Made by a program: the position numbers and the translations under genes. The notes beneath the pieces were generated by a model, which was not told where the DNA came from, made no database searches, and saw only the letters and a program-made list of their open reading frames with translations. This document shows, one piece after another, positions 5,364 through 62,429 of a stretch of DNA of 64,000 nt. This DNA comes from Gemmatimonadales bacterium (GTDB lineage Bacteria; Gemmatimonadota; Gemmatimonadetes; Gemmatimonadales; Gemmatimonadaceae), in the NCBI GenBank assembly GCA_038250435.1, contig JBBSCJ010000017.1, forward strand, positions 3,450 to 67,449, given 5' to 3'. Position 1 is the first letter of the stretch. Every line of letters starts with the position of its first letter.

Positions 5364-5436
5364 GGTGCCTGCTGCGCGACGTCGCCGCCCTGTGGCGCGC
5401 GGCGCGCCGGTTGTCGGCGCGGTGAAGGTATCGCGT

Positions 5437-6282: not shown

Positions 6283-6312
6283 CGGCGGTGCGCCCTTGCT
6301 TCTGCGGCGCGT

Positions 6313-8774: not shown

Positions 8775-8778
8775 CTAT

Positions 8779-8798
8779 ATATCCGGATGGAAGGATAT
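8779..8798. promoter_or_regulatory. 20-bp palindrome ATATCC-N8-GGATAT just upstream of the sahR-like start (candidate operator)
   Basis: Perfect 6-bp inverted arms at 8779-8784 and 8793-8798, inside the only AT-rich patch of the region. A third GGATA copy lies at 8767-8771. Confidence 0.4.
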
Positions 8799-8863
8799 TC
8801 TACTCCCGCCTCGCTGTAAAGGGCTCCACTGCTCTCCCGGCAGCCGGGCGGCAGAGGGAAGCG

Positions 8864-32611: not shown

Positions 32612-33002
32612 GTTCAGAAACCTCTTCCGGAGGGGGAAGGCAAGAGGTCTGTTCCTGCTCGATCGTTCGGTAACCCGACCAGCATGGCGCAATGGAGGGA
32701 TGCCCTCCCTGACGGAGTCGAATCGAAAAACACCAAGGCGTCCGAAACGTGTACTCGTCAAAGTCGCGCGGTAGCTTCGTGGTTTTGCGTCACTGGCTTT
32801 CGCCGGTTTTGCTCTTGTCGTAGGCTCGCGCGGAAAGACCGTAGCGTGGTCCAGCGCGAGCATTATCGGGTCCTCGTGTCACGACTCAACCGACCGTGAT
32901 GTATCAATGGCCTGGGGCGGGGAGTTGTTACAGGTTCGGCCCCGCACGATTCTGCATTGCTCCGCCGGTGCGCCGTCGCGCCTTGCCGCATATCGGCTCA
33001 CA

Positions 33003-41945: not shown

Positions 41946-42226
41946 GGCTGATAGCTCCAAAGGATGGCACGCCACGCGAGATGGAAGGCGGCGTCTGCCG
42001 CGCAACTCCTGGTCGCGGGCTGCGAATGCGCAAGCGAGTCGAATGTGCTCGCGCATCGGGAGCCCTGCCAAGACGCCGCGAAGCCGGTCCGTCGATTGTT
42101 GCGCTATCGAGACCGCGCGTTGACGTAACCAGACCCGGCGCTCCTCGAAACACACGGCATGCTTCGGTACCGAACCAAGCGAGTCGTTCGGAAGGACAAC
42201 CACGCGGACCGCCGTGTCGTGCACGC

Positions 42227-47245: not shown

Positions 47246-49534
47246 CTACTCGATGCGCACAATCGCCATGCGCACATCCGCCGGCAGCGCGCTGTTGCGG
47301 CCGCCTTGGACCGACAACAGCTGCGGAACGGCGAAGGTCCCCGAAAGTTCAAAGAACGCATGGGCGCCACCGCGGATCAACGCGCCGTGTGTGCCGAACC
47401 CACCAAACGCGAGCGGCGTCGCGACGAGCGGAAACGCCGTTGGAAATCGATCTCGCCAGGCGGGCGCATTATTCAGGCCCGCATAGATGTCACGTAAATT
47501 CCACGAGGAGATCTCCAGCGCCGGCGACGGCGTGGCGAGGACGGGGTTGTCATCCAGCAGCAACGCCAGTCCCCAGCTGCCGATCAAGTAATCGGCTGTT
47601 GTGCCGGATACGCTGGTCAGATTGGTCATCCCGGTGGCGGTCGCGCTCGTCAGGGCACGGAAAAACGCCGGCTCGGAAACGGCGAATCGATCGGCGGCGT
47701 AGCGTACCAACGACCATGCAGGGCTGTAGAACGTAAAGCCGGATTGACCAAAAGCGTCCCCAAAGGGCGACCTGTTGGCGGGCTCAAGCAGTTTGTTGCG
47801 CAGCTCGCTGAAGTGGCGCCGCATCCCCGAATTTGGCCGACGTAGCGCGTCGCCATCGGCGCAGGAGGCATCCGAAAGATGGAAATCGCAGAACAGTCCC
47901 GATATCGCTGCGCTTCCGAAGCCGATATTGCCCTTCCACGGTTGGCGATACAGCGATTCGCGCGCCCATACCTCTTCGGCGTGTCGCGCCGTACTCTCTT
48001 CGAGCCACACCTGCTCAAAGTTTGCCGCGCCCGCTGCGACGCGCGCGGAGTTGGAGGCAAGGTGCTTTGCTTCGTGCACCACGCTACGCGAGATGAACGC
48101 GAACCATCCGTCGGGCGATTCGGTACTTTCAACGTTCAACAGGGGGGTCACCGGCACCGCTCCGTACATCAGCTGGCCAAAATTACTTCCGGGCGCCGTC
48201 GTGCGCGGAAACTGATCGCACGTCGTCACGTACGCCGCAGCACCGGTAGCGTTGAGCCGCTGCGAGAACACCATATGCACTTTGCCGTCATTGTCGGTTT
48301 CGGCGTCGCGCAACAGCGGATCACCAAAAGTACGCGCCACCGACGCGTACTGCTCTTCATCGAAGATCTGACCGATGCGTGCGTAGTAGCCGGCGAGCCG
48401 CGCATCCGCGTTCGACTGCAGCGTGTTCGTCGTATCCTCCCAGATGATCGAACGCGTGCCCACGCGAATCGCTCGTGTGCGCATGACGCGTGAACGGTCA
48501 TTGCAGCTCGCGCCGAAGGTAAAGAAAAAGTCCCGTAACTCGCCGGTCGTAACGGCCATCGCTGCAGCGCGTTGACCCGGCAGTCGTTCGCGCAACGATG
48601 AGGGCGCGGCAGACATCAACCGCTCAGCCTCGCGGCGATCGCGCTCCAGATGTTCGCCGTGAATCGCCTCGGGCGTCGGTACCCGGGGCTGCTCGCTGCC
48701 GAGCACTTCGGCGCGCACCGGCACCGCCGGCACCGCCGACAGCGCCGTCTGCGGTGCATTGCCTGACAGCACGATATCCGCGACGGCATTCGCCGACACG
48801 GCCACATTGAACAGCGCAAGCAGATAACGGTCCGAACCGCCGATTGGTACCAACTCGTTGCACGTCGATGCGCTGGCGTTGGGCGTGATCAACAGTTGCC
48901 CGACAAGCAATGAGATCGGCGTCACGTCGACCGACAAGGAGCGCCGTATGGGTGGGGCATCGGCGACAGTCAGCACCAGTTCTGCGGGTCCGCTTTCCAT
49001 ACACGGCACATCGATGTCCAGACTCCTGCCTGTGGTGGCGACGATGGTCGCGCGTTGACCACGCACGGTCACGAAAACGCCCAAGGATGACGCCGCAAAC
49101 CCATCCCCATCGATGCGGGCTCTCGCCCCGGCTCGCAGTACCGATGGGGTACTAGCCGCAATCGACGGCAGGGGCGTAACGGTGAGACTCAGCGACCCTT
49201 GTCGCATCTCGCTGGTCGCGGTGACGAGCACGGTGCCCGCGCGCAAGGAGGTCAGCAGACCGGCGTCATCGATCGCGGCGATCGTCGGATCGCTGGTGCT
49301 CCACGTGACGGCACGTCCGGTCAACCCGGATCCGGCGGCGTCGCGCGGCACGGCGGCAAACCGCTGGGTGGAGCCCACGACCACTATCGTAGAAGGCGCT
49401 GCGACGGAGACGGTGGCTACCTGCGTTGCGACCGTGGGTGGTGATGTCGAGCCGTCCCGGCATGCGCCAAACACCAACATGGCGCTCAGCCCTGCAGCAA
49501 TGACAGCGGTCGATCGAGATGGAAACGACGGCAC
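47246..49534 (-). CDS. gluzincin-like metallopeptidase lipoprotein with Big_2 domain
   Basis: GTG 49534 preceded by GGGAGAG. Lipobox LVFGAC. Big_2-like AVTWSTSDPTIAAIDDAGLLTSLRAGTVLVTA. HEAKH followed by VWLEESTARHAEE. Paralogue of the 25013..26839 product. Confidence 0.65.
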   Translation of the reverse strand: MPSFPSRSTAVIAAGLSAMLVFGACRDGSTSPPTVATQVATVSVAAPSTIVVVGSTQRFAAVPRDAAGSGLTGRAVTWSTSDPTIAAIDDAGLLTSLRAGTVLVTATSEMRQGSLSLTVTPLPSIAASTPSVLRAGARARIDGDGFAASSLGVFVTVRGQRATIVATTGRSLDIDVPCMESGPAELVLTVADAPPIRRSLSVDVTPISLLVGQLLITPNASASTCNELVPIGGSDRYLLALFNVAVSANAVADIVLSGNAPQTALSAVPAVPVRAEVLGSEQPRVPTPEAIHGEHLERDRREAERLMSAAPSSLRERLPGQRAAAMAVTTGELRDFFFTFGASCNDRSRVMRTRAIRVGTRSIIWEDTTNTLQSNADARLAGYYARIGQIFDEEQYASVARTFGDPLLRDAETDNDGKVHMVFSQRLNATGAAAYVTTCDQFPRTTAPGSNFGQLMYGAVPVTPLLNVESTESPDGWFAFISRSVVHEAKHLASNSARVAAGAANFEQVWLEESTARHAEEVWARESLYRQPWKGNIGFGSAAISGLFCDFHLSDASCADGDALRRPNSGMRRHFSELRNKLLEPANRSPFGDAFGQSGFTFYSPAWSLVRYAADRFAVSEPAFFRALTSATATGMTNLTSVSGTTADYLIGSWGLALLLDDNPVLATPSPALEISSWNLRDIYAGLNNAPAWRDRFPTAFPLVATPLAFGGFGTHGALIRGGAHAFFELSGTFAVPQLLSVQGGRNSALPADVRMAIVRIE

Positions 49535-49925
49535 TGGTCGCTCTCCCGTACAAGGGTACCGTCGTGTCGCTGTCGGCCACTGGCTGAAGCGGTAGGCGTG
49601 GGAAAAGCTAGCGAAACCGTGCCGACGCGCCGGATGCGAATCGCATTTGTTGAGGAGTTGTGACGTACAGCCGCGATGCTCTGTGCGCGTCGTCACCTCG
49701 GCCGTGTGGTCGGCGGTGCTGCGCGGACATGTCACGTTTCTGTGGCGCTTCGGGCTTTCGCGTGAGGCCGGGCTGACGCGCGCACTGAATAGCTGAATCT
49801 GCGCTCAAGTCTGGGCACCCGGCGCCGATAGTTGCTGATGGAGGGACGCGCCGCGGCGTCTGGCCACCCGCAACTCGTCGAGAACAATCGGTGAGCACGC
49901 ATTAACGCCTATTCAGAGGTGCCGC

Positions 49926-50477
49926 TTGGCACTGGACATTCGACATGCGCTCTCCGCGAGCGCGCCGGAATCGCTATCCGAGCTCCGGGAGATGTTAGGG
50001 AGCCTCGAAGCACAGTTGGTCACGCTGTACGAGGAGAAGGAAGAGTGGAGCGCCAGCTCCGCTGCACCGGACGAGACACTCACGGCGCTGTATGAAGACA
50101 AGCAGCGGCTGAGCGCCCGTACCATCGCTGATCTCCGGGCCAGCGTGGACAGCTTTTCGGCGCAACTCGCCGAATTTTATGAGGGACGCGAGCACGAGGG
50201 CGCGGCAGTCGGCGCTGGCAGTTCCGCTGAGCTGCTCGTATCGCTCCAGTCGTTCGAGGCGCAGCTGCACGCGCTTTATGACGAGCGTTCGCTTCAGCCC
50301 TTCGGACATGGTGAGGCGGTGGAAATGGTGCATAGCCTTGAAGCGCAGCTGGTCGCGCTGCTCGATGAACGCAACGAGCTCGCCGAGCAACTCGCCCGCG
50401 CCGCGCAGGACGTGAACACCGCCAAACGGCGTGCCCGTGAGCTCGTGAACGCCGTGGTCGATCAAACATTCGCCTGA
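49926..50477 (+). CDS. coiled-coil protein with internal S-[LF]-[ES]-AQL-x-x-[LF]-Y-[DE]-E repeats, first gene of the pyp operon
   Basis: TTG 49926 preceded by GAGG. Repeats LGSLEAQLVTLYEEKEEW, LTALYEDKQRL, VDSFSAQLAEFYEGREHE, LQSFEAQLHALYDERSL, VHSLEAQLVALLDERNEL. Confidence 0.55.
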   Translation: MALDIRHALSASAPESLSELREMLGSLEAQLVTLYEEKEEWSASSAAPDETLTALYEDKQRLSARTIADLRASVDSFSAQLAEFYEGREHEGAAVGAGSSAELLVSLQSFEAQLHALYDERSLQPFGHGEAVEMVHSLEAQLVALLDERNELAEQLARAAQDVNTAKRRARELVNAVVDQTFA

Positions 50478-50527
50478 GCGCTATCGCGCTCGACTACCCA
50501 ACACTCGTGCCAGTTCTGGAGGTTTCT

Positions 50528-50902
50528 GTGTCGTTTGTTCCTTCGCAGTTCATGTCGCAAATCCCGTCGGTTGACCGCAGCCATGCTGATGATCAGTCTT
50601 TTGGTGTCGTGCAGGTTGACGACGCCGGTGTGATCAAGCTGTACAACCGGTTCGAGTCCGAGATGGCCGGCGTGGCCGTGAGTGCAGCCGAAGGCCGGAA
50701 CTTCTTCACGCACGTCGCGCCGTGTACCAACAATCGGCTCATGTTCGGCAAGTTCAAGGATGGCGTGGCCAAGGGTGAGCTCGACACCGAGTTCAACTAC
50801 ACGTTCACCTACAAGATGAAGCCGACGAACGTGCAGATCCGTTTGTATCGCCACGCCCCGTCCGCGACCAACTGGGTGCTTGTCGGCCTGCGCGCCGCGT
50901 AA
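50528..50902 (+). CDS. pyp: photoactive yellow protein (PYP, PAS-fold 4-hydroxycinnamyl photoreceptor)
   Basis: 124-aa product from GTG 50528, 5 nt after GGAGG (50518-50522). Colinear with Halorhodospira PYP as I recall it: [24 protein letters not shown] vs [71 protein letters not shown] vs [47 protein letters not shown]. Chromophore Cys codon TGT at 50723-50725. Confidence 0.9.
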   Translation: [124 protein letters not shown]

Positions 50903-50924
50903 TCATTTCTCGGCTGGAACTCGT

Positions 50925-50970
50925 GGGGCAGCACACCCGTTGCTGCCCCTGCGTGCTCGCTTTCTCTTTC
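50925..50970 (+). terminator. hairpin + T-rich tract immediately after pyp (intrinsic terminator/attenuator)
   Basis: GGGGCAGCA (50925-50933), loop CACCCGT, TGCTGCCCC (50941-50949), then ...GCTTTCTCTTTC (to 50970). Confidence 0.5.
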
Positions 50971-50971
50971 G

Positions 50972-51445
50972 ATGGCTCCCGGACAACCCATGCGCTCGCT
51001 CGCCCAACAACTGTTAGAGGTCGCCGACCCGTCGATCGTCGTCCCGACCTGCCGCAACATCGCTGAGTCTGTCGACCTGAACGCCCGGGAGAAGGAAGAC
51101 CTGGCGGCGGAAGCAGAAAGCCTGTCGGCGCAGATCACGTCACTCGCGTCGTCGCTGCAGCATCCCGACGACGAACCGGACCTGTACCGTAGCCTCGCCG
51201 CCTTGTGGCTGGAATTGCGCTTCGCCTGGCAACGGCACAACATGGTGGCGAACTACGACACCATTGGTACCGGCTCGTGCGCGCCGATCGTTCTTGCGCG
51301 CGCCTCGACGGCTTCGTTCTTTCTCCAGCGCATCGAGGCGTTGCTCGCCCGCGAGCACCTCGATAAACTCGGCGACACGGCCGTCGAACTGCTCGACAGC
51401 GTGCGAACGGACGTGGATAGCGGCAATCTTGGCGTGGCCGCGTAA
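50972..51445 (+). CDS. hypothetical protein sharing a novel domain with the N-terminus of the CheA-like protein
   Basis: 157 aa. LAALWLELRFAWQRHNMVANYDTIGTGSCAPIVLARASTASFFLQRIEALL aligns by eye with LPSIWLELRFEWMRYNMQMQYQTVLRGTADPLLMARGASLSSILDAVEFHL in the 52555..54033 product. Confidence 0.55.
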   Translation: MAPGQPMRSLAQQLLEVADPSIVVPTCRNIAESVDLNAREKEDLAAEAESLSAQITSLASSLQHPDDEPDLYRSLAALWLELRFAWQRHNMVANYDTIGTGSCAPIVLARASTASFFLQRIEALLAREHLDKLGDTAVELLDSVRTDVDSGNLGVAA

Positions 51446-51446
51446 C

Positions 51447-52547
51447 GTGTTCACGACGCTTCTGAAACGCCTGCTTCGCGCAGCCACCGCGCGCTTACCA
51501 TGGCGTTCGCGACCGCCCCTCCTCAGCGAGTCGGCAGCGCCGTCCACCGTCGCCGTGGTCTCGATCGAGATCGCGGCACCGGCACCCGCTCCAACAGCAG
51601 CCGCGGCGCCAGTAGCGGAAGCGCGGACGGTCGTGTCGCCCGCCGAACCGACGGTGGCGTACGCGCCATCCGAGGCGTGGACGGAGCGGCTGGCTGCCGC
51701 CTACGCGTTGCAGAGCGATCATGCCACTGAATCGACAAACCCTGACGCGACGGCGCTGTTGCAGCTGCTCGCGGAAGGCCCTGACACGGTGATTCGCCAG
51801 ATGCCGGCGGCGGCTCGTGAGGCGCTCGCCATCTGCGACGACAATAGCCTGTCGCGTCGCGCACTTGCGCAGCGCCTGGAACGCGATCCTGCGCTGATGC
51901 AGGGGCTGTTGCGGACCGCCAACAGCGCCGCGATCGGCGGTGGACGCGCGCCCGCTGTGGGACTCGACGCCGTACTCGATCGCATCGGCGTGGCGGGGGC
52001 GCGCGGAGTCGTGCTCGCCAACTGTGTCGATGGACTGCTGAGTCATCCGGGCGGCGAGTTCAACCGCCTCGCCAGCGAGACGTGGGCGCACATGGTGCGC
52101 AGTGCGCCGATTGCCCGCGCGGCGGCACCGGCGTTTGCGGCCGACGCCGATGAAGCGTTTACCGTCGCCTTGCTCCACGACGTAGGGAAACTTGTGGTGT
52201 TCGATCGCCTCTCCGTTTTGCGCGCGAAACGTCGACGCGCCGTGACCCTCGCGCCCGACTTCGTGCATCAGCTGCTCCAACTGCTCCATGAGCCGCTCGG
52301 CGCCCTCGCCGCGCTCCAATGGGGTATGGGTGACCGGGCCGCCACCGCGATCGGCACCCACCATCGGGTCGCGGCCGCGCGGGGACGTCATCCACTCGCC
52401 GAAGCCATCTTCTTTGCCGAACGCGCGGACCATGCCGAACGACGTCAGGAACCTTTCGATGTTGATCTCGCGTGGACCGAAGGCAAGCTGACCGGCTCCG
52501 TGAATCGCGCCGTTGCGGCGCTGCAATCGCTTCCAACCGCCGCGTGA
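51447..52547 (+). CDS. HDOD domain protein
   Basis: GTG 51447 one nt after the upstream stop (start uncertain). Ala/Pro-rich N-terminal region. HDOD signatures RDPALMQGLLRTANSAAIG and ALLHDVGKLVVFD. Confidence 0.7.
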   Translation: MFTTLLKRLLRAATARLPWRSRPPLLSESAAPSTVAVVSIEIAAPAPAPTAAAAPVAEARTVVSPAEPTVAYAPSEAWTERLAAAYALQSDHATESTNPDATALLQLLAEGPDTVIRQMPAAAREALAICDDNSLSRRALAQRLERDPALMQGLLRTANSAAIGGGRAPAVGLDAVLDRIGVAGARGVVLANCVDGLLSHPGGEFNRLASETWAHMVRSAPIARAAAPAFAADADEAFTVALLHDVGKLVVFDRLSVLRAKRRRAVTLAPDFVHQLLQLLHEPLGALAALQWGMGDRAATAIGTHHRVAAARGRHPLAEAIFFAERADHAERRQEPFDVDLAWTEGKLTGSVNRAVAALQSLPTAA

Positions 52548-52554
52548 TCGTCAC

Positions 52555-54033
52555 ATGAGCGACCGTCTGTTCGACCTGTTGACGCTTCTGGAGAGCACAC
52601 AAGTCCGGGAACGTATCCGCCAGATGATCGATGAGCTCGGGAGCATCGGCGACGACGATGCCCGAGCGCTGGAGGCGGCGATGAACGCGCGCCTCTGCGG
52701 TATTGCGGAGTCGCTCCGTGATGTCTGCATCGACGACGACACCACGGAAGCACTCGCCATGCTCCCCTCGATCTGGCTCGAGCTGCGCTTCGAGTGGATG
52801 CGCTACAACATGCAGATGCAGTACCAGACCGTCCTGCGTGGCACAGCCGACCCGTTGCTCATGGCCCGGGGCGCGTCGCTGTCTTCCATCCTTGACGCCG
52901 TCGAATTCCATCTGGATGCGGAGGCGGCGTTCATTGTCAACAAGATCGCGGCTGACCCGTCGGGGGCTGCACGCGGCGCTATCGACAAGACTGACCGACT
53001 CTTCAGCATCCTGTTCACCGCCAGCGCCGGCGGCCGCGCTGCCGTGGAAGCGCTGCTCCTCGTTCAACATCAGATCGCCAAGCATACGGATTCAATTCCC
53101 GTGCGCAACGAGATGCGAAAAGCGATCAGCACGGTCATGGAACGCATCGGCGGCGCGCTGCTCGTGACGGTCGATGACTTCATCAGTGCGCTCCAGGGTA
53201 CCCTCCTGCGCAAACTGGGCGACGCGATGGTCCGGGTGGTGCTGTATGACGCGAGTCCGAATCCCTCCCTCTGCGTGCCGAGCGCTGTCGCCAACGGCCT
53301 GCTGTCGGCCGCCGGCGACTGGATGACTGCCCTGCGCGACAGCTCCATGTCGCTCGGAGCGCGTGAACGTCTCGCAGCCGGACGGCCATCGTACGTCACC
53401 CTGACGGCGACGTTGAACCAGATCGGCGATCGCGTCGAGCTCACGCTTGCCGACGACGCTGATGGCGCCGTGTTGTACACGCCCGACTGGAACGCGTGGC
53501 CTATCAGCGATTTCACCCTGCATCTGCAGCAGGAAGCGAACGTCGGCAGCGCGCTCGTCATCAGCTGCAATGTCACCAGCATCCGGGAATACGTCATGCT
53601 GCGCGTCGGTGCCGGGGACGATGACGCGTTCATCGGCATCCCGATGCACATGATCAATCACATCGAGAGACGTGACCAGAGCGCGCTCGCGCTGCAAGGG
53701 ATGCGACTCATCGAGCGAGTGACCGGCGGAACCGTACCGCTCATCGATCTCGGCGACGCGCTCTTCGGCGCCGCGATCCCCACCATCGACGGGACATATG
53801 TGCACATACGCCTGGAAGACACAGACGTATCGCCGGGTGGCATCATCGCGGTGCGGGTACGAGGGGTGGAAGGTATCTGCCGCGGCAGCGTGCGGTCGGC
53901 CCATCAGATGCTTTCTGCAAGCCCGCTCCGCGGCTTCCTGCAGACGGACAGCCGTATCGTAGCCGTCCTGGATTTTGACCGACTCCTGGGGCACCGCGTG
54001 CGCACCCATGGGGAAGCCTTGCGGGCGGCCTGA
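52555..54033 (+). CDS. CheA-like protein: novel N-domain + degenerate HATPase (P4-like) + CheW-like (P5) domain, no Hpt
   Basis: ERLAAGRPSYVTLTATLNQIGDRVELTLADDADG resembles CheA EKRLAAGK..G.L.LSA.H.GG...IEV.DDG.G. The C-terminal FIGIPMHMINHIER...VPLIDLGDALFG...IIAVRVRGVEGI...GFLQTDSRIVAVLDFDRLLG matches the CheW/P5 pattern. N-box, G1/G2 boxes and the phosphorylatable His domain were not found. Confidence 0.55.
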   Translation: MSDRLFDLLTLLESTQVRERIRQMIDELGSIGDDDARALEAAMNARLCGIAESLRDVCIDDDTTEALAMLPSIWLELRFEWMRYNMQMQYQTVLRGTADPLLMARGASLSSILDAVEFHLDAEAAFIVNKIAADPSGAARGAIDKTDRLFSILFTASAGGRAAVEALLLVQHQIAKHTDSIPVRNEMRKAISTVMERIGGALLVTVDDFISALQGTLLRKLGDAMVRVVLYDASPNPSLCVPSAVANGLLSAAGDWMTALRDSSMSLGARERLAAGRPSYVTLTATLNQIGDRVELTLADDADGAVLYTPDWNAWPISDFTLHLQQEANVGSALVISCNVTSIREYVMLRVGAGDDDAFIGIPMHMINHIERRDQSALALQGMRLIERVTGGTVPLIDLGDALFGAAIPTIDGTYVHIRLEDTDVSPGGIIAVRVRGVEGICRGSVRSAHQMLSASPLRGFLQTDSRIVAVLDFDRLLGHRVRTHGEALRAA

Positions 54034-54035
54034 CC

Positions 54036-55673
54036 ATGTCCGAACGAACTCCTGCCTCGATCGACGTCGGCGCGGTCGTGACAACGCGGCACGTCTTCGA
54101 TATCGCACACGGGTACCGCACGGCGGCGCTCGGGAGTGCGGCGCGGGCGCGCATGCAGGCCTCACACACGACATTGGCGCGGATGGTTGCCGAGCGTCGA
54201 CGGATTTATGGCGTGACCACGGGTTACGGTCCCCTTGCCTCGCATCCAATCTCGCCCGAGCACGCCGCGACGCTGCAGCGGAACCTCGTGTACCACCTCT
54301 GCAGCGGTGTCGGCAAGCCGCTGTCGCGTCTCCACACCCGCGCGATGATGGTCGCGCGGGCCGCGAGTCTCGCTCGCGGTTATTCCGGCGTGAGTGAGAC
54401 GCTGTTCCGCACGCTGCTCGACTGCCTGGAACGCGACCTGGTACCCGTGGTCCCCGAGATGGGGACGGTGGGTGCCAGCGGTGATCTCACGCCACTCGCC
54501 CACGTTGCGCTGGCCATGCTCGGCGAGGGCGAAATGTGGTATCGCGGCGAACGCTTGCCGGCGGCGCAAGCGCTGCGCGCGGCTGGCCTGGCACCAATCA
54601 CGCTCGGCCACAAGGAGGGAATCGCCCTTGTGAATGGCACCTCGTGCATGACAGGCATCGCCGCCGTCAATGCCGAGCGTGCGCGCCGGGCCGCTGACCT
54701 CGCGCTCCGCCTGTCGGTGCTCTTTGCGGAGTGCCTGAACGGACGTCTCGAGGCCTGGGACCCCCGCTTCGCGGTCGCCCGCCCGCATGCCGGGCAGGTG
54801 GTCGCCCACGCCGCGCTCGCGCGGTGGAGTGCCGGTAGCTCACGCCTCCGCGCCACCATACAGCCCCCTGAGCGACTCGACGAGTCCGAGTCCCGCGAGG
54901 GCTGGTTGCCCGAAGGCGAGCTGCCGCAGGATCCGTACACGATCCGCTGCGTCCCGCAGCTCATCGGCGCTGTGCTGGACGTCCTCGCGTTCCACGACAA
55001 CATCGTTGCAACCGAGCTGCAGAGCGCCACCGACAATCCGCTCGTTTTCGCCGACGACGAGGCGATCCTGCACGGTGGCAATTTCTATGGACAGCATGTC
55101 GCGTTTGCCTCGGACACGCTGTTGCTTGGCGTAGCGAAGCTGGCCATTCATGCCGAACGATGCGTCGCACGCATCACCGATCGCGCGCAGAACCAGGGAC
55201 TCCCCGCGTTTCTGCACGGCGGACCCGATGGCGTGAATTCCGGATTCATGGGCGCACAGGTCACCGCCAGCGCCCTCATCGCAGAGCTGCGCACCCGCGC
55301 GGTGCCGGCGTCGATCCAGTCCGTTCCCACGAACGCCAATAATCAGGACGTCGTCACCATGGGCACGATCGCCGCGCGCAAAACAGCCGACGTGCTGGAC
55401 CTCGTTTATCTGGTGCTCAGCATCCAAGCCTTGGCGCTTGCCCAGGCGGCCGAAATGCGGGGGGGTTCGGAGCTGTCCGGCTTCGCGCCCGCCAGCTGTG
55501 CCATGGTACGATGGATTCGCGAGACAGCCTCCCCGCTCGTCGCCGACCGGCCGTTGGCCCCGGACATCGAATGCCTGGCCGCGCGACTCGAAATGGTCGA
55601 CTGGGGAAGCGAACACTGCGAGGATGCCGCGCAGACGCCGAACGACGCGGACGAACTCGCACTCGTGTTTTGA
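54036..55673 (+). CDS. tal: aromatic amino acid ammonia-lyase, predicted tyrosine ammonia-lyase (p-coumarate synthesis)
   Basis: MIO-forming GASGDLTPLAH (ASG codons 54474-54482). His-Leu (54294-54299) in NLVYHLCSGVG, at what I recall as the Tyr-selectivity switch. Same operon as pyp. No hutU/hutI nearby. Confidence 0.8.
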   Translation: MSERTPASIDVGAVVTTRHVFDIAHGYRTAALGSAARARMQASHTTLARMVAERRRIYGVTTGYGPLASHPISPEHAATLQRNLVYHLCSGVGKPLSRLHTRAMMVARAASLARGYSGVSETLFRTLLDCLERDLVPVVPEMGTVGASGDLTPLAHVALAMLGEGEMWYRGERLPAAQALRAAGLAPITLGHKEGIALVNGTSCMTGIAAVNAERARRAADLALRLSVLFAECLNGRLEAWDPRFAVARPHAGQVVAHAALARWSAGSSRLRATIQPPERLDESESREGWLPEGELPQDPYTIRCVPQLIGAVLDVLAFHDNIVATELQSATDNPLVFADDEAILHGGNFYGQHVAFASDTLLLGVAKLAIHAERCVARITDRAQNQGLPAFLHGGPDGVNSGFMGAQVTASALIAELRTRAVPASIQSVPTNANNQDVVTMGTIAARKTADVLDLVYLVLSIQALALAQAAEMRGGSELSGFAPASCAMVRWIRETASPLVADRPLAPDIECLAARLEMVDWGSEHCEDAAQTPNDADELALVF

Positions 55674-55781
55674 TCCTGACGCTTCCCGATACGCCGACTG
55701 TCTACTCGGCCGAGCTGTTCCCGGCGCGTTGAAGTGACCACGCTGAGCGCGCCGAGGGAGCGGACACCGGGGGAGCAGTCA

Positions 55782-56945
55782 TCAAAAAATTACCGCAGTG
55801 CCGTTTCCTTGTTCGTGTGGCGTGGTATGCGTCGCGCGCCTGACAAAACGGTAGCAGCCGTCGTCGATCGCTTCGACGATATCGCCGGTGCGTTGCCACG
55901 CCGCACTGTCGCTTCGCTGTAGACCATCGCGCGTCCAGCGCCCGACGCAGGCATTCGCCCCGCGAAAGGCGAGCACGCCGTCGGAGTCGATGCGCACCTC
56001 ACACCCAATCGCACGGCCGAGTAATCGCGCGGACCACACGCCGGCCCCGCCCAGCGCGATACCCGCCGACGCTTCAGTCTGTCCGTACCCGGCACGCAAG
56101 CGTGTCGATTGCAGCTGCGTCGCGAGATTTGCGGAGATTGGTGCGCCTCCGACCACCCCGCCGGTCAACCGGCGAAGCAAGGAGGCTCCCCGTCCTTGGG
56201 CGAACAGACGCGCGGCAAGCGCCGGTCGCAGCTCCACGTGGGTTATCGGATGGGCGTCCGCCAGATCGAGCAGCGACGGGATATCCTGGCCGCCATCGGG
56301 ATCCCGTACGATTTCGTGCGCATGGAGCAGCGCCATCAGCAACCCTGTCACCAAGCCGGAGGCCTGATGCCAAGGCAGCACGCTCAGCATGCAGCCGCCG
56401 GTCGGTGCGACGAACGGCGCATGGCTGTCGAGTACGGCGAGCACGCTCGCGTCGGAGAGCGCAACCCATGTCGGTTCCCCCCTGGTACCCGATGTCCGCA
56501 GCAACACACACACGTCGGGAGTCACGGCACCATCGGCGATTCGTAGCGACGGCAAGGACCGGTCCGGCCAGCCCGCGTCACCTGGCTCGAAGCAATACGA
56601 CGCAGGCGCCACTCCTGCAGCAAATGAATCACGGACAATCAGTCGCGCATCCAGCATTGCCAGGAGCGCCTCCAGCCGATCTCCTTCGACATCGCGCGGC
56701 GCGACCGGTGCCAACGTCACGCCGTCCCACAGCGACGCGATCAGCAGTTGCACGAAGGCCGCACCGGGCGGCAGCGCGCAGACCACACGATCGCCGCGCC
56801 TGATGCCGGCCTCGCGCAGCGCGCGCACCCACTGGCGCGAGCCCGCCCACAGCGATGCCGCCGTCCAGATGTGATCGGGAAGCACCAGCAAGGGCGTGGC
56901 CTGTCCCGCAAAGCGCGCGTACAGCCGATCGCGCCATCCGTTCAT
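55782..56945 (-). CDS. pcl: 4-coumarate-CoA ligase-like adenylating enzyme (pCL), short form
   Basis: AMP-binding motifs [13 protein letters not shown] (A3), GYGQTEAS (A5), WQRTGDIV (A8). The ORF stops about 35 aa after TGD, so the usual C-terminal subdomain appears absent. Confidence 0.7.
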   Translation of the reverse strand: MNGWRDRLYARFAGQATPLLVLPDHIWTAASLWAGSRQWVRALREAGIRRGDRVVCALPPGAAFVQLLIASLWDGVTLAPVAPRDVEGDRLEALLAMLDARLIVRDSFAAGVAPASYCFEPGDAGWPDRSLPSLRIADGAVTPDVCVLLRTSGTRGEPTWVALSDASVLAVLDSHAPFVAPTGGCMLSVLPWHQASGLVTGLLMALLHAHEIVRDPDGGQDIPSLLDLADAHPITHVELRPALAARLFAQGRGASLLRRLTGGVVGGAPISANLATQLQSTRLRAGYGQTEASAGIALGGAGVWSARLLGRAIGCEVRIDSDGVLAFRGANACVGRWTRDGLQRSDSAAWQRTGDIVEAIDDGCYRFVRRATHTTPHEQGNGTAVIF

Positions 56946-56957
56946 GCGCTACGCTCC

Positions 56958-58145
56958 CTACGCCGCTGGCAGCCGTCTCACCGCCAACAACGTCACGTCA
57001 TCTGCTGGTGGCGCGCCCGCTGCATGCCCGTGAACCGCGTCGAGCACTCGGTCGAGCAGGACATCGGCGGAACCGCTCGGCGACGCAAGCAGTGCATCGG
57101 TCGCGTCATCGCCGAACAGCAACCCGTTTGGCGCACGGGACTCGGTGATCCCATCAGTAATTACCAGCAGCGTTTCGCCGGGTGCCAGCACGATCGTGCC
57201 CACCGCAAACGGAATCTCCGGCAGCATACCCACGGCCGGTCCGGTTGGCGGCAGCATCGTGCGCACGCTCCCGTTGGCGCGCACCACGCGCGGCGGCTCG
57301 TGCCCGCCGTTGACGTATGCGATCGTTCCGGTAGACGGATCGAGCGCTCCCACGAACAGCGTTGCGAACATATTTGCCCGCCCATGCGTGTTGGCGATGT
57401 AATCGTTCGTAACGGTGACCGCGTACAGCACGCGGGACTCCAACATGTCCACGGTGTGCGACCCGACCTGCGAGGCAGATACGGCGCGAATGAGCGAGCG
57501 AAACAGCGCCATGAACAGCGCGGCACCGACGCCCTTGTCGCACACATCACCGAGCACGAGAGCCACCGCGCCATCGGGCAGGCGGAACGCATCATAGAAA
57601 TCACCACCAACTTCCCGCGCCGGTTCGAAGCGCGCGGCGAGTTCATAGCCCGTCACTGCGGGCAGGCTCTCCGGCAGAAAATCGCGCTGGATGCGGGCGC
57701 CGACCTCGAGATCTTTCTGCATGCGTTGCGCGCGCGCCTGCTCGCGGTCACGCAGTCGCTTTTTCTCGAGCGACGCACCTACGCGGGCGCGCAGCAGCAC
57801 CGGATCGAACGGCTTCGGGAGATAGTCTTCCGCCCCCAGTTCGATGCACTTCACGACCGTCTCGAGCTCGGTGTTGGCCGAGATCATGATTACCGGAATG
57901 TGCTGCGTACGGTCATTCGCCTTGAGCGCAGTCAACGCCCCCAGGCCATCGAGCACGGGCATCATCACGTCGAGCATGATCAGATCCCACGACGGATCGC
58001 TCGTGAGATCGAGCGCTTCCTGTCCGTCACTGGCGGTCGTCACCACATGCCCCATCTTCTGCAGACGACGCGACAGCAGATCGCGGTTCACCTCGACATC
58101 ATCGACCACCATGATCCGTGCCGGGGCCGACCGGTCTTCAGTCAT
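56958..58145 (-). CDS. response regulator receiver + PP2C/SpoIIE serine phosphatase (RsbU/HsbR-type)
   Basis: REC domain IMVVDDVEVNRDLL...DLIMLDVMMPVLDG...KPF. PP2C region REVGGDFYDAF...VLGDVCDKGVGAALFM...GGHEPP...LLVITDGITE. ATG 58145 gives an ATGA overlap with the upstream patatin gene. Confidence 0.85.
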   Translation of the reverse strand: MTEDRSAPARIMVVDDVEVNRDLLSRRLQKMGHVVTTASDGQEALDLTSDPSWDLIMLDVMMPVLDGLGALTALKANDRTQHIPVIMISANTELETVVKCIELGAEDYLPKPFDPVLLRARVGASLEKKRLRDREQARAQRMQKDLEVGARIQRDFLPESLPAVTGYELAARFEPAREVGGDFYDAFRLPDGAVALVLGDVCDKGVGAALFMALFRSLIRAVSASQVGSHTVDMLESRVLYAVTVTNDYIANTHGRANMFATLFVGALDPSTGTIAYVNGGHEPPRVVRANGSVRTMLPPTGPAVGMLPEIPFAVGTIVLAPGETLLVITDGITESRAPNGLLFGDDATDALLASPSGSADVLLDRVLDAVHGHAAGAPPADDVTLLAVRRLPAA

Positions 58146-59074
58146 CGAACTGGCCACAGGCCTGGTGTCGGAAGCGGGCCAATCATCGATGCCTGCAGCA
58201 GGCGTCGCAAGTACGGCATCTGTTCTTCGGCGGCGCGCTCGCCTTGTTCGATGAGATACGGAATGTGCTGCGTCTCGGTGAGACCGATGTGGCGATCGAG
58301 CAAAGGCATGATCGGCAGCACTTCGGCGTGGTGCGCGACGCTGTAAAAGGCGAAGGTCGCGCGAAGCAGGTGATTGGTCACGATCGTGGACGTCCGCCCC
58401 AACGCATTCACCAGCGAGCGGACCTCGGCGTTCATCTGACTTTCAAAGCCCATCGCGAGAATGATGTCGCAGCCTTCGCGGATTGCGACATCGATCGGCA
58501 GCGGGTTTGACGCGCCGCCGTCCACCAGCATGCGACCATCGACTTCCCAGGCGCGCAGCAGCATCGGGATCGCAATGCTGGCCCGCGTGGCGTCGGTGAT
58601 GCGTCCCGAATCGAGCACAACTTTGTCGCCCGTGCGAAAATCGGTGGCCGACTGCAGCAGCGGGATTCTGGTGTCGGCAAAGGTGCGCTCGCCGAACAGC
58701 GATTCGAGCACCTTCCACACCTGACGATCGTCCACCATCCCCACCCGCTCGTGATAGCCCATGAACATCGGGGCGATCGCGCGCAAGAGGGATCGGTAAT
58801 GCAGCTTGTTGAAAAGGTCTTTCCAAAGCACCAGCGTTTGCCGCTCGATTTCGGTCGCGCTGTCGCCGAGGACGTAGAGCGCGCTGTAGATCGCGCCGCC
58901 ACTGCACCCCACCACGACGTCTACGGGGATGTTTTCGCGCTCGAGCACCTTGAGCAGTCCCACCGCAGCCGTGCACTTGATGCCGCCTGACCCGATCACC
59001 AAACCGATGCGCGCGCGGCGTTCGCCGAAGTCGCCGAGCGAACGTTCACCGGTAGCGCCGAGTCGGAGGGACAT
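58142..59074 (-). CDS. patatin-like phospholipase (copy 1)
   Basis: Oxyanion GSGGIKC, nucleophile elbow GCSGG, catalytic Asp motif VDGGASNPLP. Confidence 0.85.
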   Translation of the reverse strand: MSLRLGATGERSLGDFGERRARIGLVIGSGGIKCTAAVGLLKVLERENIPVDVVVGCSGGAIYSALYVLGDSATEIERQTLVLWKDLFNKLHYRSLLRAIAPMFMGYHERVGMVDDRQVWKVLESLFGERTFADTRIPLLQSATDFRTGDKVVLDSGRITDATRASIAIPMLLRAWEVDGRMLVDGGASNPLPIDVAIREGCDIILAMGFESQMNAEVRSLVNALGRTSTIVTNHLLRATFAFYSVAHHAEVLPIMPLLDRHIGLTETQHIPYLIEQGERAAEEQMPYLRRLLQASMIGPLPTPGLWPVR

Positions 59075-59084
59075 CAGCGCGTGT

Positions 59085-59939
59085 TCATTCAGGCACCGCG
59101 GCCAGGAGCCGGCGCAGGTACGGAAGCTGCTCCCGCATGGCGGCGTCTCCCTCGTCGATCAGCAACGGAATCTTTCCGGTATCGAACAGCCGGATACGCT
59201 GCGAGAACTGCGGGATCACGGCGATCACTTCGCTGTGGTGAGCAAGGCCGTGAAACGCGAACGACGCCTTGAGCAGGTTGTTCGTCATGATGCTGCTGAG
59301 TTGAAACGCGAAGCGTCCCCCCGACGTCACCCGGTCCTGATACGGGCTTTCGAAACCCATCGCGATAATGACGTGTGCCCCTTCGCGGATCGCCACTCCT
59401 ACCGGCAGCGGATCGGAGAGGAAGCCGTCGATGCACAGTCGGCCATTCACTTCCCACGGCGCGAACGCAAACGGAATCGCGATGCTGGCCCGCACGGCAT
59501 CAGCGAGGCGCCCTTCGCTGATCGTGACCTGCTCGCCGGTGCGGAAATCGGTGGCGGTGATGAACAGTGGGATCTTGCAGTCGGCAAAGGTGAGATCACC
59601 GAAGGCCGTGGTCAGACGCTCCCACACCACGTGATCCTTCTTGAGGCCGAACCGCTCGGTGAAGCCGAGCAGCCTGGGAAACAGCATGCGCATCAGCGCG
59701 GCGCGATCGGGCTGCGCGGTCACGTCGCGGGTCCACAACGTGGTGCTCATCGCCGCCGCTTCCTCGGCGTTCTTCCCGAGGGCGATCGCGGCAGCGTAGA
59801 TCGATCCGCCACTGCAGCCGACCACCAGGTCGATGTTGATCGACTCCCGCGCGAGGCATCGCTGCAGTCCGATGGCGGCGGCGCACTTCACGCCGCCGGA
59901 GCCGATCACCAGCGCAATGCCGCTCCCGTCACGTCTCAC
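59085..59939 (-). CDS. patatin-like phospholipase (copy 2)
   Basis: GTG 59939 overlaps the STAS stop (GTGA). GSGGVKC, GCSGG, IDGFLSDPLP. The track ORF extension to 60299 is antisense-frame overlap with the STAS gene. Confidence 0.8.
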   Translation of the reverse strand: MRRDGSGIALVIGSGGVKCAAAIGLQRCLARESINIDLVVGCSGGSIYAAAIALGKNAEEAAAMSTTLWTRDVTAQPDRAALMRMLFPRLLGFTERFGLKKDHVVWERLTTAFGDLTFADCKIPLFITATDFRTGEQVTISEGRLADAVRASIAIPFAFAPWEVNGRLCIDGFLSDPLPVGVAIREGAHVIIAMGFESPYQDRVTSGGRFAFQLSSIMTNNLLKASFAFHGLAHHSEVIAVIPQFSQRIRLFDTGKIPLLIDEGDAAMREQLPYLRRLLAAVPE

Positions 59940-60289
59940 CTGGCGCCGCCCACGTTGGCGAAGCTGGCAACGGCGCCGTCGACATCCGCAAAGCATTTGA
60001 GAATGCTGGTGAAGCCGCTCAACTCCAACACCTGGCGCACATTCGGACGGATGTCGGAGATCCGCAGATCGCCGCCGCGTTGACGCGCCTCCTTGAGCGT
60101 GGACAACAACACCCGCAGCCCGGCGCTGCTGGTATACTCGACGCCGCCGAAATGCGCGACGATGCGCGTCCGTCCGGCGGTCACTTCGTCGAGCAAAGCC
60201 GTGACGAGCGTGTCGGCGGTAAGGGTATCGATGCTGCCGGTCACGGCCACGATCGTGACGTGTTCCTGCTGCGTGATCGATATCTGCAT
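59936..60289 (-). CDS. STAS-domain anti-sigma-factor antagonist (RsbV/SpoIIAA-like)
   Basis: 117 aa. VTIVAVTGSIDTLTADTL...VEYTSSAGLRVLL (phosphorylatable Ser context)...VLELSGFTSIL. Confidence 0.85.
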   Translation of the reverse strand: MQISITQQEHVTIVAVTGSIDTLTADTLVTALLDEVTAGRTRIVAHFGGVEYTSSAGLRVLLSTLKEARQRGGDLRISDIRPNVRQVLELSGFTSILKCFADVDGAVASFANVGGAR

Positions 60290-60291
60290 GA

Positions 60292-60765
60292 CTAGGCACG
60301 TCCTGAAGGGGAAGCGCTGGCGGCGCCGCGCTTGATAAGCGTTAATCGGTTCAACATGCCCTGCGCCGTTGACACGGAGTCGTACTGCAGCTCGTCCACC
60401 ATCTGCCTTACGAGAAACCAGCCGAGTCCGCCGATCGGGCGGTCGATCCAGTCGGACACGAGGTCGGGCGTCGGGGCGTTGGCGGGATCGAACGGCTCCC
60501 CCCGGTCCTCCACGACAATGATGGCATCATCTCCGCTCCGCCGCACGGAAACGCGCGTCGGTCCCGGGGCGAGGCCGTCGGTCCCGTGTTCGACGAGGTT
60601 GGCGCAGACTTCATCCACGGACAGTACGAGCGCATCGGTCGCGCCGGCGCAGCCCAGTTCGGCGAGCGTCACCCGGAGGAATTGCCGGATGTCGCCGAGT
60701 CGATCGAGGGTGAAGGGAGACAGGGCGAGGATGCGCTCGGCGTCGGACGCCAGGGGTTCAGCCAT
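60292..60765 (-). CDS. anti-sigma regulatory factor-type Ser/Thr kinase (RsbW/SpoIIAB-like HATPase)
   Basis: ATG 60765. N-box-like EVCANLVEHG, VEDRGEPFD, GGLGWFLV. Confidence 0.75.
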   Translation of the reverse strand: MAEPLASDAERILALSPFTLDRLGDIRQFLRVTLAELGCAGATDALVLSVDEVCANLVEHGTDGLAPGPTRVSVRRSGDDAIIVVEDRGEPFDPANAPTPDLVSDWIDRPIGGLGWFLVRQMVDELQYDSVSTAQGMLNRLTLIKRGAASASPSGRA

Positions 60766-61852
60766 GCAGACTCTTCCCCGTGGCGAGCGGGATCCGGAAC
60801 ATGCGCGTCTGAAAGGAGATCGGTTCGGCGTCGTCCACTTCATCGCCCGCCGCAGACTCGATGGAGTCGGGCGCCGGCCCCTTCGCAGGAAGCATCACGG
60901 TGAACGTGGAGCCGCTCCCCGCCTTCGATTCCACCTCGATGTCACCGCCCATCATCAGGGTGAAACGGCGGCAGAGCGCAAGGCCGAGTCCCGTGCCGCC
61001 ATGATCGCGCTGCGTGGTGGCGTCGGCCTGCGCGAACGCCTGAAAGAGACGGCCAAACTGTTCTCGGGTGAGTCCGACGCCGGTGTCCTCTACGCTCAGC
61101 GCCAGAAAATCCTCGCCATGCCGTTCGGTGCGCAGGGCGCGCAAGGTCACCGTACCGTTGGTGGTGAACTTGCCGGCGTTGGACAGGAGATTGAGCAGCA
61201 CCTGACGCACCTTGCCGGGATCGGCGGTCATGCTGCCGACGTCGGCGTCGCTGTGCACCACGAACGCATTCCCCTGCTTCTTCACCACCGGCGCGACAGT
61301 GCCTTCCACCTCGCGCAGGAGCGTGGCCACGTCGACCCTCTCGAGATTGAGCTCCATGCGCCCGGCTTCGATCTTCGAGAAGTCGAGCACATCATTGATC
61401 AACCCCAAAAGGTGTTTGCCGGCGCCAGTGATTCGCTTGAGGTCGGCAGCGATCTCGACAGCGGTCATATCAGCCGCATCTTCCTGCAGCATTTCGCTGT
61501 AGCCGATAATGGCGTTGAGCGGCGTACGCAGCTCATGGCTCATGTTTGCCAAAAACATGCTCTTGGCTCGGCTTGCCGCTTCCGCCTTTTGTCGTGCCTC
61601 CGTGGCCGCATCGCGCGCCGCCCCAAGCGCACCAATCGTGGTATCGAGTTCTTGCCGCTGGCGTGCGGCATCGTGCTGCAGCTTCCTCTCGCGCCCACGG
61701 AAGTACGCGAGGAGCGCGGCAACGGAAAGCGTGAGGATGACACTGGCCAGCAGGAGCGAAGCTGGGGACACGACAGCTACCGATTCAGGTTGTACGCGCG
61801 CGGTCGCTCTCGGGACGCCGATGAGAACAGCCCTGCCAGCGGGCTCGCCCAA
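60758..61852 (-). CDS. membrane-anchored histidine kinase without recognisable sensor domain
   Basis: One TM (SLLLASVILTLSVAALLAYF), coiled coil, H-box FLANMSHELRTPLNAIIGYSEML, N/G boxes (LLNLLSNAGKFT, DTGVGL, GGTGLGL). Start uncertain: TTG 61852 after GGGAGG, or GTG 61771. Confidence 0.8.
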   Translation of the reverse strand: MGEPAGRAVLIGVPRATARVQPESVAVVSPASLLLASVILTLSVAALLAYFRGRERKLQHDAARQRQELDTTIGALGAARDAATEARQKAEAASRAKSMFLANMSHELRTPLNAIIGYSEMLQEDAADMTAVEIAADLKRITGAGKHLLGLINDVLDFSKIEAGRMELNLERVDVATLLREVEGTVAPVVKKQGNAFVVHSDADVGSMTADPGKVRQVLLNLLSNAGKFTTNGTVTLRALRTERHGEDFLALSVEDTGVGLTREQFGRLFQAFAQADATTQRDHGGTGLGLALCRRFTLMMGGDIEVESKAGSGSTFTVMLPAKGPAPDSIESAAGDEVDDAEPISFQTRMFRIPLATGKSLHG

Positions 61853-62081
61853 GTTGACGCAGGCCTCCCGAAATGGACGCGCGGAAATATGCCGCGATCT
61901 CGTACGGCTTGGTAACCCGTATCCCCCGCATCTTTGCGAGCGGCGTTGACCATCGTTCCCAACCCCCCGCGACGTGAACAGATCACGAACAATCCGGGAT
62001 CGTCCTGAACTTGCATGGGAGACGCGGATGTTCACCGCGCACACCGCGCACTCAGGCAGGCACGACTTCTGGAGGGACTTC

Positions 62082-62429
62082 ATGGCTCGCGGCGCTGATA
62101 CCACAGTCACCAAAATCGATTCATCGACCTCACCGGTCGGGGCTGACGGCGAGGTCTACCTTGCCTCGGGAAAGTCGCTGTCCATGCGCATGTGGCGCGA
62201 CGAGCCGCCGGCCGACTCCAAACCGGCGAGTCGCCGGGAGTACGAAACCGTAGGCTACGTCCTCGACGGGCGGGCGGAATTGCACATCGAAGGACAGATG
62301 GTGTTGCTCGAACCGGGAGATTCCTGGGTGGTGCCTCTCGGTGCAGAGCACAGCTACAAGATTCTCGAAACCTTCAGCGCCATCGAAGTCACGCATCCGC
62401 CCTATCAGGTGCACGGACGCGCGGAGTGA
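62082..62429 (+). CDS. cupin domain protein
   Basis: ATG 62082 preceded by GGAGGG. Cupin motifs GYVLDGRAELHIEGQMVLLEPGDSWVVPLGAEHSY. Confidence 0.7.
   Translation: MARGADTTVTKIDSSTSPVGADGEVYLASGKSLSMRMWRDEPPADSKPASRREYETVGYVLDGRAELHIEGQMVLLEPGDSWVVPLGAEHSYKILETFSAIEVTHPPYQVHGRAE

Follow-up and report, generated by a model that had tools for sequence, protein, structure and literature searches.

Photoactive yellow protein (PYP) is among the best-studied photoreceptors in biophysics, and both recent surveys of the family still give its downstream partner as unknown (PMC12826048, PMC9664959). The biochemistry is established for the pyp-pcl-tal operon of Halorhodospira halophila, which combines the gene of a single-domain PYP with dedicated genes for a tyrosine ammonia-lyase (TAL) and a p-coumarate-CoA ligase (pCL)-type enzyme (PMC12826048). 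In Leptospira, a clade-B PYP lies beside chemotaxis-type proteins with an unannotated gene ('None') in between, and in a CetA/CetB-like model clade-B PYP has been proposed as the missing sensor of a neighbouring sensor-less chemoreceptor (Xing et al. 2022, PMC9664959). Ppr, which carries a PYP domain, binds CheW (PMC2993699), and in Rhodobacter capsulatus the 142-amino-acid (aa) protein PBP (RCAP_rcc01067), encoded beside pyp, binds light-activated Rc-PYP in vitro (bioRxiv 10.1101/2021.06.01.446672), a precedent for a neighbouring gene product acting as partner. PYPs of Gemmatimonadota have also been published (PMC9664959, PMC12826048). The Gemmatimonas phototrophica AP64 protein WP_026849937.1 (GEMMAAP_05245) was used as a query and placed in clade B by Xing et al. 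2022 (PMC9664959), and its operon is tabulated, uninterpreted, in the supplements of both surveys. Here, we analyze an orthologous pyp locus in a 64,000-nucleotide stretch of a Gemmatimonadales bacterium (assembly GCA_038250435.1, contig JBBSCJ010000017.1, positions 3,450 to 67,449; hereafter the window, to which coordinates refer unless another locus is named). As a PYP/TAL/pCL cluster the locus is ordinary, a further example of a catalogued but uninterpreted operon type, and its more informative part is the set of conserved accessory genes between pyp and tal. We consider it reasonably likely that a clade-B PYP, a chromophore enzyme and the most likely signalling partners of the receptor are encoded here in one operon.

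Six tightly packed plus-strand open reading frames (ORFs) occupy positions 49926-55673, separated by gaps of 50, 87, 187, 7 and 2 nt, and one minus-strand ORF converges on them. We read the six as an operon of a Gemmatimonas-like bacterium in the order ORF1, pyp, ORF3 (a stand-alone copy of a domain that we call domX), HDOD, ORF5 (domX-CheA-like) and tal, a picture that we hold to be fairly probable when the mechanism proposed below is included. The top homologues of every gene come from metagenome-assembled genomes (MAGs) of Gemmatimonadales, Gemmatimonadaceae or Gemmatimonas. Measured against the closest relative (locus L003, GCA_038210005.1), which served as the reference for DNA alignments and for ratios of non-synonymous to synonymous substitution (dN/dS), all six operon genes are under purifying selection (dN/dS 0.05-0.21). 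Searches of 49500-57200 for promoter and terminator consensus sequences produced no signal above the shuffled background. An initial annotation of this region had described a complete PYP locus, notable because the receptor is rare. Rarity does not hold, given the published Gemmatimonadota PYPs, the AP64 operon in the supplementary tables and hundreds of close environmental homologues. The same annotation passed over four genes within the region that it described (49926-50477, 50990-51445, 51633-52547 and 52555-54033), which are the ones on which most of this analysis bears.

In AP64, the neighbours given in the supplement of Dohmen et al. 2025 (PMC12826048) are a 491-aa hypothetical protein ('51% identity with CheW'), a pseudogene, a 151-aa hypothetical protein, the PYP (124 aa) and a 185-aa hypothetical protein; across the published tables, an HDOD gene or a pseudogene lies between the 151-aa and 491-aa hypotheticals and an aromatic amino acid lyase comes last (PMC9664959, PMC12826048). 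The main texts of these two papers mention neither HDOD nor CheW nor the hypothetical proteins of the operon. The AP64 PYP is approximately 89% identical to that of the window, as judged by eye from the printed sequence. The two loci belong to different species and have different flanking genes, and the window has a convergent truncated ligase gene beside a partner-switching cluster.

The pyp gene (50528-50902, plus strand) starts with GTG, 6 nt 3' of a GGAGG, and its 124-aa product is almost certainly a genuine PYP with a complete p-coumarate pocket, judging from its sequence. A phmmer search of the PDB returned 33 distinct sequences, all of them PYP or Ppr PYP-domain chains (best E 6.8e-24), and the match is colinear across residues 10-119. 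This upholds the initial annotation, which had reported colinearity with H. halophila PYP and equivalents of Cys69 (in 'VAPC'), Tyr42 and Glu46. In an alignment of 11 sequences (the window, H. halophila and nine relatives) these three residues are invariant, as are Phe62, Ala67, Pro68, Phe96, Tyr98, Met100 and Trp119 (H. halophila numbering); the H. halophila sequence used agrees with the PDB chains matched by phmmer. The chromophore Cys is Cys66 of the window protein, in the context 'HVAPCTNN', and in 'LYNRFESE' Tyr39 and Glu43 correspond to Tyr42 and Glu46, the residues that hydrogen-bond the phenolate. Five of the six remaining pocket residues (Ile31, Phe62, Val66, Ala67, Pro68 and Phe96; PMC12826048) are identical, and Ile31 is replaced by Val. 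Compared with the H. halophila protein, the clade-B PYP of the window is 37% identical, carries Thr50Ala and Arg52Val, and has its N-terminal cap replaced by a conserved 'MSFVP..F'. Its gene has a dN/dS of 0.05 against L003.

The NCBIfam PYP model TIGR02373 scores the window protein at 109.9 bits (E 8e-32), below its trusted cut-off of 143.05 bits, Pfam PAS models have no match at E 0.01, and the top NCBIfam names of the lyase discussed below are those of histidine ammonia-lyase (HAL). These three observations could be taken to mean that the locus holds a generic PAS domain and a histidase and no PYP system, which we regard as very improbable. The PDB matches are exclusively PYP or Ppr (33 of 33) with the chromophore pocket conserved and the triad aligned, not generic PAS domains. 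Moreover, the clade-B PYPs shown in the published table, L. biflexa entries included, are all marked 'photo_yellow (< cutoff)' (PMC9664959), and the L. biflexa and S. ruber proteins have been characterized spectroscopically (PMC12826048, PMC9664959). The TIGR02373 model is narrow, and a score under its cut-off is compatible with PYP membership.

The lyase side of that alternative fares no better. The tal gene (54036-55673, plus strand, 545 aa) is the last of the operon, starts 2 nt past the preceding gene and matches PF00221 at 521 bits. The residue at the His89 switch position of the R. sphaeroides enzyme (RsTAL) sets Tyr versus Phe selectivity, and at this position the window lyase reads 'LVYHLCSGVG' against 'LVHHLASGVG' in RsTAL, that is, the His-Leu of His89-Leu90, which are not histidase residues; a second PDB sequence, 2o78, reads 'LVHFLASGVG'. 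The Ala-Ser-Gly triad that forms the MIO (4-methylideneimidazole-5-one) group lies in 'GTVGASGDLTPLAH', aligned to the MIO position of 2o6y. RsTAL (2o6y) is also the best PDB match (E 1.6e-130, 440 bits, versus 264 bits for P. putida HAL), and the protein stays under both HutH cut-offs (TIGR01225, 466 versus 539 bits; NF006871, 476 versus 524 bits). From these features the lyase is nearly certain to be TAL-type, and the MIO lyase with a His-Leu motif that had been annotated as closing the operon is confirmed.

The third chromophore gene is a different matter. The initial annotation had a pCL-like gene converging on the operon and, with it, the three genes that suffice for holo-PYP formation. 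An acyl-CoA ligase gene is indeed present and convergent (55782-56945, minus strand; PF00501, 92.6 bits), but it encodes only 387 aa and comprises the N-terminal ANL domain only. The motifs of this domain are present (the P-loop 'TSGTRGEP', 'AGYGQTEAS' and 'RTGDIV'), and the frame stops at the hinge just past 'TGD...YRF', 17 residues after 'YRFVRR'. Over residues 8-386 of the 479-aa L003 orthologue the product is 78% identical, and there it stops; it is 49% identical to the 470-aa L001 orthologue, and 46-62% identical to the pyp-side ligases of L001, L004, L012, L013, L015, L020 and L025. The orthologues extend approximately 93 aa further, including a lysine motif, 'TAKGEVDR' or 'TPKGETDR'. 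In the ANL superfamily, the adenylation half-reaction depends on the C-terminal lysine (A10 motif). When the window is compared with L003 by blastn, 49847-55673 and 55830-56940 align, and between them lies a 156-nt junction (55674-55829) without similarity to L003, which replaces 274 nt coding for the pCL C-terminal subdomain; a tblastn search found the missing subdomain neither in any downstream frame nor elsewhere in the 64-kb window. Across the junction, the window is matched at 99.98% and 100% identity by two independent Logan assemblies built from separate sequencing runs, so a single-assembly artefact does not account for the truncation; L006 and L007 carry the same truncated gene. By orthology, the neighbouring ligase is the pyp-linked pCL, which has lost its C-terminal subdomain. 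Since its orthologues keep this subdomain with its 'TAKGEVDR' lysine motif, the descriptions 'complete locus' and 'three genes that suffice' are unsupported. Compared with the H. halophila operon, the window thus has its ligase gene on the opposite strand and without the C-terminal subdomain, and four extra interleaved genes.

The loss of the subdomain could mean that the system is decaying in this strain, with a PYP that stays apo, or that relies on p-coumarate scavenged or activated by another route, and an operon that is heading to loss. Related loci lend this some weight. In L009 the linked ligase (5236-6120) is 294 aa long with its P-loop destroyed ('TSYASD'), L016 (3566-4078) and L017 (8572-8940) hold ligase remnants of approximately 130 aa between the CheA-like gene and tal, and the ligases of L022, L023 and L024 match just the first 243-290 residues of the orthologue (the L023 ORF is 326 aa). 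Decay of the linked ligase is repeated and independent in the clade, and pyp and tal are intact in all six of these loci. The N-domain of the window ligase has a dN/dS of 0.25, against 0.18-0.27 between pairs of full-length orthologues, and compared with the same partners its values (0.29, 0.23 and 0.24) are slightly above those of the L003 ligase (0.26, 0.19 and 0.18). Even so, we find decay of the system unlikely. On the evidence of an open 387-codon frame and a dN/dS within the full-length range, the label of dead pseudogene is not warranted for the ligase remnant, and pyp, tal, ORF3 and ORF5 are all intact, with dN/dS of 0.05-0.21. A pCL gene is linked in just 32% of published predicted pyp operons (PMC12826048) and is hence not a general requirement. 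Recurrent ligase decay does make an adjacent pCL gene an unreliable marker of a self-sufficient PYP system.

Directly 3' of pyp, ORF3 (50990-51445, plus strand, 151 aa; alternative ATG at 50972) has no match in Pfam or NCBIfam and carries the motif 'ELYxxLAxxWLELRFxWQRHNxVxNY'. Its AlphaFold2 model is a six-helix bundle of high confidence (predicted local distance difference test, pLDDT, 95.9; predicted template modelling score, pTM, 0.88), and Foldseek comparison of the domX model with the PDB returned generic helical bundles only (best E 0.43). The N-terminal part of ORF5 is 32% identical to ORF3 (E 9e-14), with the shared stretch 'WLELRF.W.R.NM', and the two share a novel helical domain. 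This domain, domX, is an uncharacterized domain of 135-160 aa and, in the models, all-helical; by description this sets it apart from R. capsulatus PBP, which is predicted to contain a beta-sheet. Searched exhaustively with HMMER, 1.84 billion representative proteins yielded only 85 domX clusters. Within them the domain stands alone, occurs in tandem (two or three copies) or lies N-terminal to other modules, and it is fused to MCPsignal, the signalling domain of methyl-accepting chemotaxis proteins (MCPs), in P0178, to HATPase_c plus CheW in P0238 and P0196, and to cores of the ORF5 type. For domX proteins of approximately 300-350 aa, such as P0183, the C-terminal half has no match in ORF5, in MCP proteins or in Pfam. 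We also considered domX as a degenerate Hpt/P1 domain and rejected this, as no Hpt structure is among the listed Foldseek matches and no invariant or nearly invariant His column exists in an alignment of 47 sequences.

ORF5 (52555-54033, plus strand, 492 aa) consists of the N-terminal domX, long helices, a degenerate HATPase-like region and a CheW-like region. PF01584 (CheW) matches residues 362-494 of the 506-aa program-called frame at 28.5 bits (cut-off 23.5). The top Foldseek matches of its AlphaFold2 model (pLDDT 80) are CheA structures, namely 6s1k_A (a core signalling unit, E 3.8e-17), 8c5v_A, 3ja6_C, 2ch4 and 1b3q (CheA-289), and the modelled fold is that of a CheA P3-P4-P5 unit. The P1/Hpt domain with its phospho-accepting His is a core domain of CheA (PMC10782961). 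In ORF5 Pfam finds no Hpt/P1 domain, and domX, which takes up the N-terminus, has no His among its invariant or nearly invariant columns; the HATPase_c model has no match either. ORF5 reads 'DDADG' at the G1-like position where family members have 'DDGxG', and its segment from 'DDADG' to 'GS' spans only approximately 25 residues, whereas the more distant P0238 and P0196 keep the full lid and match HATPase_c. The shortened ATP-lid region and the lack of an Hpt domain make ORF5 look like a pseudokinase scaffold, and on the modelled structure it is probably one derived from CheA. CheA3 and CheA4 of R. sphaeroides are likewise CheA-family proteins without part of the P1-P5 set, and in that split system a CheA with a degenerate non-functional kinase domain still works in the array (PMC10782961). 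ORF5 differs from them in having no Hpt at all and an unrelated N-terminal domain, and the window holds no gene for an Hpt-bearing partner that would complement it. As in Leptospira, the PYP lies beside chemotaxis-type proteins; the Leptospira protein is a transmembrane MCP, whereas the candidate partner here is a soluble CheA-like P3-P4-P5 protein with domX, and in sister genomes a short MCPsignal protein with domX.

The linkage of domX to pyp extends well beyond this genome. One genome per GTDB species was scanned with the pattern WLELRF[EA]W, which was taken from a 12-sequence domX alignment and biases the resulting 19 loci towards Gemmatimonadota (18 from this phylum and one from a Planctomycetia MAG). 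In 16 of the 19, the gene immediately upstream of domX is pyp; the three exceptions are two contigs of approximately 2 kb and L018. In the latter, a Gemmatimonas MAG, the region 5645-9426 has a lone domX gene flanked by adenylosuccinate synthase and dihydrodipicolinate synthase genes, and the nearest 8 kb contain no pyp. These two gene types are listed around the G. phototrophica pyp cluster (PMC9664959), and the locus looks like the remnant of a deleted cluster, a further point for the decay described above. The usual order is ORF1, pyp, domX, often HDOD, then a domX-CheA-like or MCPsignal gene and tal, with a ligase gene nearby on either side; an MCPsignal protein takes the place of ORF5 in L001, L025 and L008, and L004 has MotAB within 10 kb.

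Seven further loci were reached through diverse domX members, and all seven (L008 and L028-L033) have pyp within approximately 1.5 kb, so that pyp accompanies domX in 23 of the 26 loci found by way of domX, which come from several phyla. These loci are diverse in gene order and in GC content (39-68%). L008 has pyp, a domX-MCPsignal fusion and tal. The 39%-GC locus L028 runs pyp, an ORF1-like gene, domX-CheA-like, tal and pcl, followed by a canonical CheA (Hpt, HATPase and CheW), an MCP and CheW, and L029 has pyp, a domX-HATPase-CheW protein and a 972-aa pCL-TAL fusion gene (8748-11666). In L030 (Sericytochromatia) pyp is followed by domX-CheA-like, a pcl fragment and tal; in L031 (Phycisphaerales) domX, an ORF1-like gene and pyp are divergent from a 1215-aa CheA-like protein and tal. 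In L032 (1866-8751), domX and an ORF1-like gene lie between two pyp paralogues, and a full-length pcl follows; just upstream lie a homologue of the HpaB-type 4-hydroxyphenylacetate 3-monooxygenase and a radical-SAM gene, an arrangement that raises the possibility of a modified (hydroxylated) chromophore. Finally, L033 (1711-8056) has pyp and a 351-aa domX protein, of which the C-terminal approximately 200 aa match nothing, within a gas-vesicle cluster (GvpL/F, GvpG, GvpA and GvpK) beside an Hpt plus HATPase_c protein; a gas-vesicle pyp operon with a 630-aa 'CheW' protein is also listed in a published supplement (PMC12826048). Comparison with 30 related loci yields three unannotated families that travel with pyp across phyla: domX, the domX-CheA-like pseudokinase and the LEAQL-repeat protein ORF1.

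ORF1 (49926-50477, plus strand, 183 aa, TTG start) is the first gene of the operon. It has four to five copies of the motif 'S-[LF]-E-A-Q-L-x-x-L-Y-[ED]-E-[KR]', at residues 24, 52, 74, 107 and 135, and is likely a coiled-coil; a Pfam scan gave no family at cut-off. It is 86% identical to its L003 counterpart (dN/dS 0.10), and proteins with its motif adjoin pyp in L001, L027, L028, L029, L031 and L032. The HDOD protein (51633-52547, plus strand, 304 aa, GTG start) matches PF08668 at 83 bits (cut-off 22.9) and the HD family PF01966 at 27 bits, with a dN/dS of 0.08. Its program-called frame begins at 51264, and the start at 51633 matches the gene call in the identical contigs L006 and L007. HDOD genes are found in most Gemmatimonadota pyp loci and are absent from L004, L015 and all loci outside this phylum, while domX stays.

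The unannotated genes of the operon are good candidates for PYP signalling partners. The rarity of domX, its linkage to pyp and its fusion to MCP-signalling and CheA-like modules make it a testable candidate docking partner, and the following sequence of events can be proposed. TAL would convert tyrosine to p-coumarate, which would be activated by a CoA ligase, be it the truncated enzyme, at low efficiency or with assistance, or a further ligase encoded elsewhere in the genome; the thioester would then pass to Cys66 of apo-PYP. Blue light would isomerize the chromophore, and the signalling state might alter the binding of PYP to domX, both in free ORF3 and in ORF5. With its P5/CheW-like domain, ORF5 would dock into an array of the chemoreceptor type, where it would act as a CheA-like scaffold without catalysis and could in this way tune a chemosensory pathway whose output is motility or another Che-type response. 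The systems above serve as precedents; we give the docking step a chance that is close to, or a little short of, even. More tentatively, domX may be a dedicated docking domain for light-activated PYP, through which clade-B and perhaps other PYPs feed chemosensory arrays via domX adaptors that include a CheA-like pseudokinase. If true, the outputs would extend from flagellar motility to the buoyancy given by gas vesicles, and the long-missing first step of PYP signal transduction would be identified. In any case, the locus narrows the partner question to a short list that is approachable in cultured G. phototrophica AP64.

Several observations weigh against this proposal. The profile of the ORF5 family has no match among PDB sequences at E up to 1, so that the relationship to CheA rests on the predicted fold and the weak CheW match in Pfam. 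The truncated ligase makes holo-PYP formation in this strain putative, L018 retains a domX gene without pyp, and the PYP-domX pair of L033 lies in a gas-vesicle cluster, which leaves room for an output other than flagellar motility. A scan of a sample of the ORFs in the 64-kb window brought up no gene for chemotaxis or flagella. Linkage to pyp would be explained just as well if ORF1 or domX served in maturation or as a chaperone.

The last point leads to a PYP that is functional with accessory genes that are not its receivers: domX and ORF1 would aid chromophore loading or folding, or be neighbours unrelated to PYP function, or the signal would run through HDOD or through a module of a response regulator-PP2C phosphatase, a STAS protein and an anti-sigma kinase. 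domX has no detectable similarity to known signalling domains, the HDOD gene is inside the operon, and the published survey tables list HDOD proteins also near the PYP genes of Thiorhodospira and Cupriavidus. In the literature library searched, no paper combines PYP with HDOD. A partner-switching cluster of this kind (RR-SpoIIE, STAS and HATPase_c_2), moreover, abuts the ligase gene. We nonetheless judge such a role for the accessory genes to be rather unlikely, if somewhat less so than decay of the system. The cluster is not syntenic in L003, and many loci (L004, L015 and all those outside Gemmatimonadota) do without HDOD but not without domX. An input domain would be expected to be fused to MCP-signalling and CheA-like cores, as domX is; a maturation factor would not.

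The partner-switching module itself (56958-62113, minus strand) lies directly upstream of the truncated ligase gene. In order of transcription it comprises a 451-aa ORF, which resembles a histidine kinase in its sequence and whose program-called start overlaps the next ORF, an anti-sigma-kinase-like HATPase_c_2 protein, a STAS protein, two patatin-like phospholipases and a response regulator-SpoIIE/PP2C phosphatase. On the other side, an 829-aa ORF (47246-49735, minus strand) ends 190 nt upstream of the pyp operon and has a Big_2 Ig-like domain as its sole Pfam match, as does a 1097-aa ORF at 38931-42224 (minus strand). Further away, a c-di-GMP-I riboswitch aptamer (RF01051) lies at 32666-32823 on the minus strand (62.5 bits versus a gathering score of 35, E 7.6e-10). 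It sits at the 5' end of the program-called ORF 30803-32863, which has a weak CarboxypepD_reg match, and the true start of this gene is probably downstream of the aptamer.

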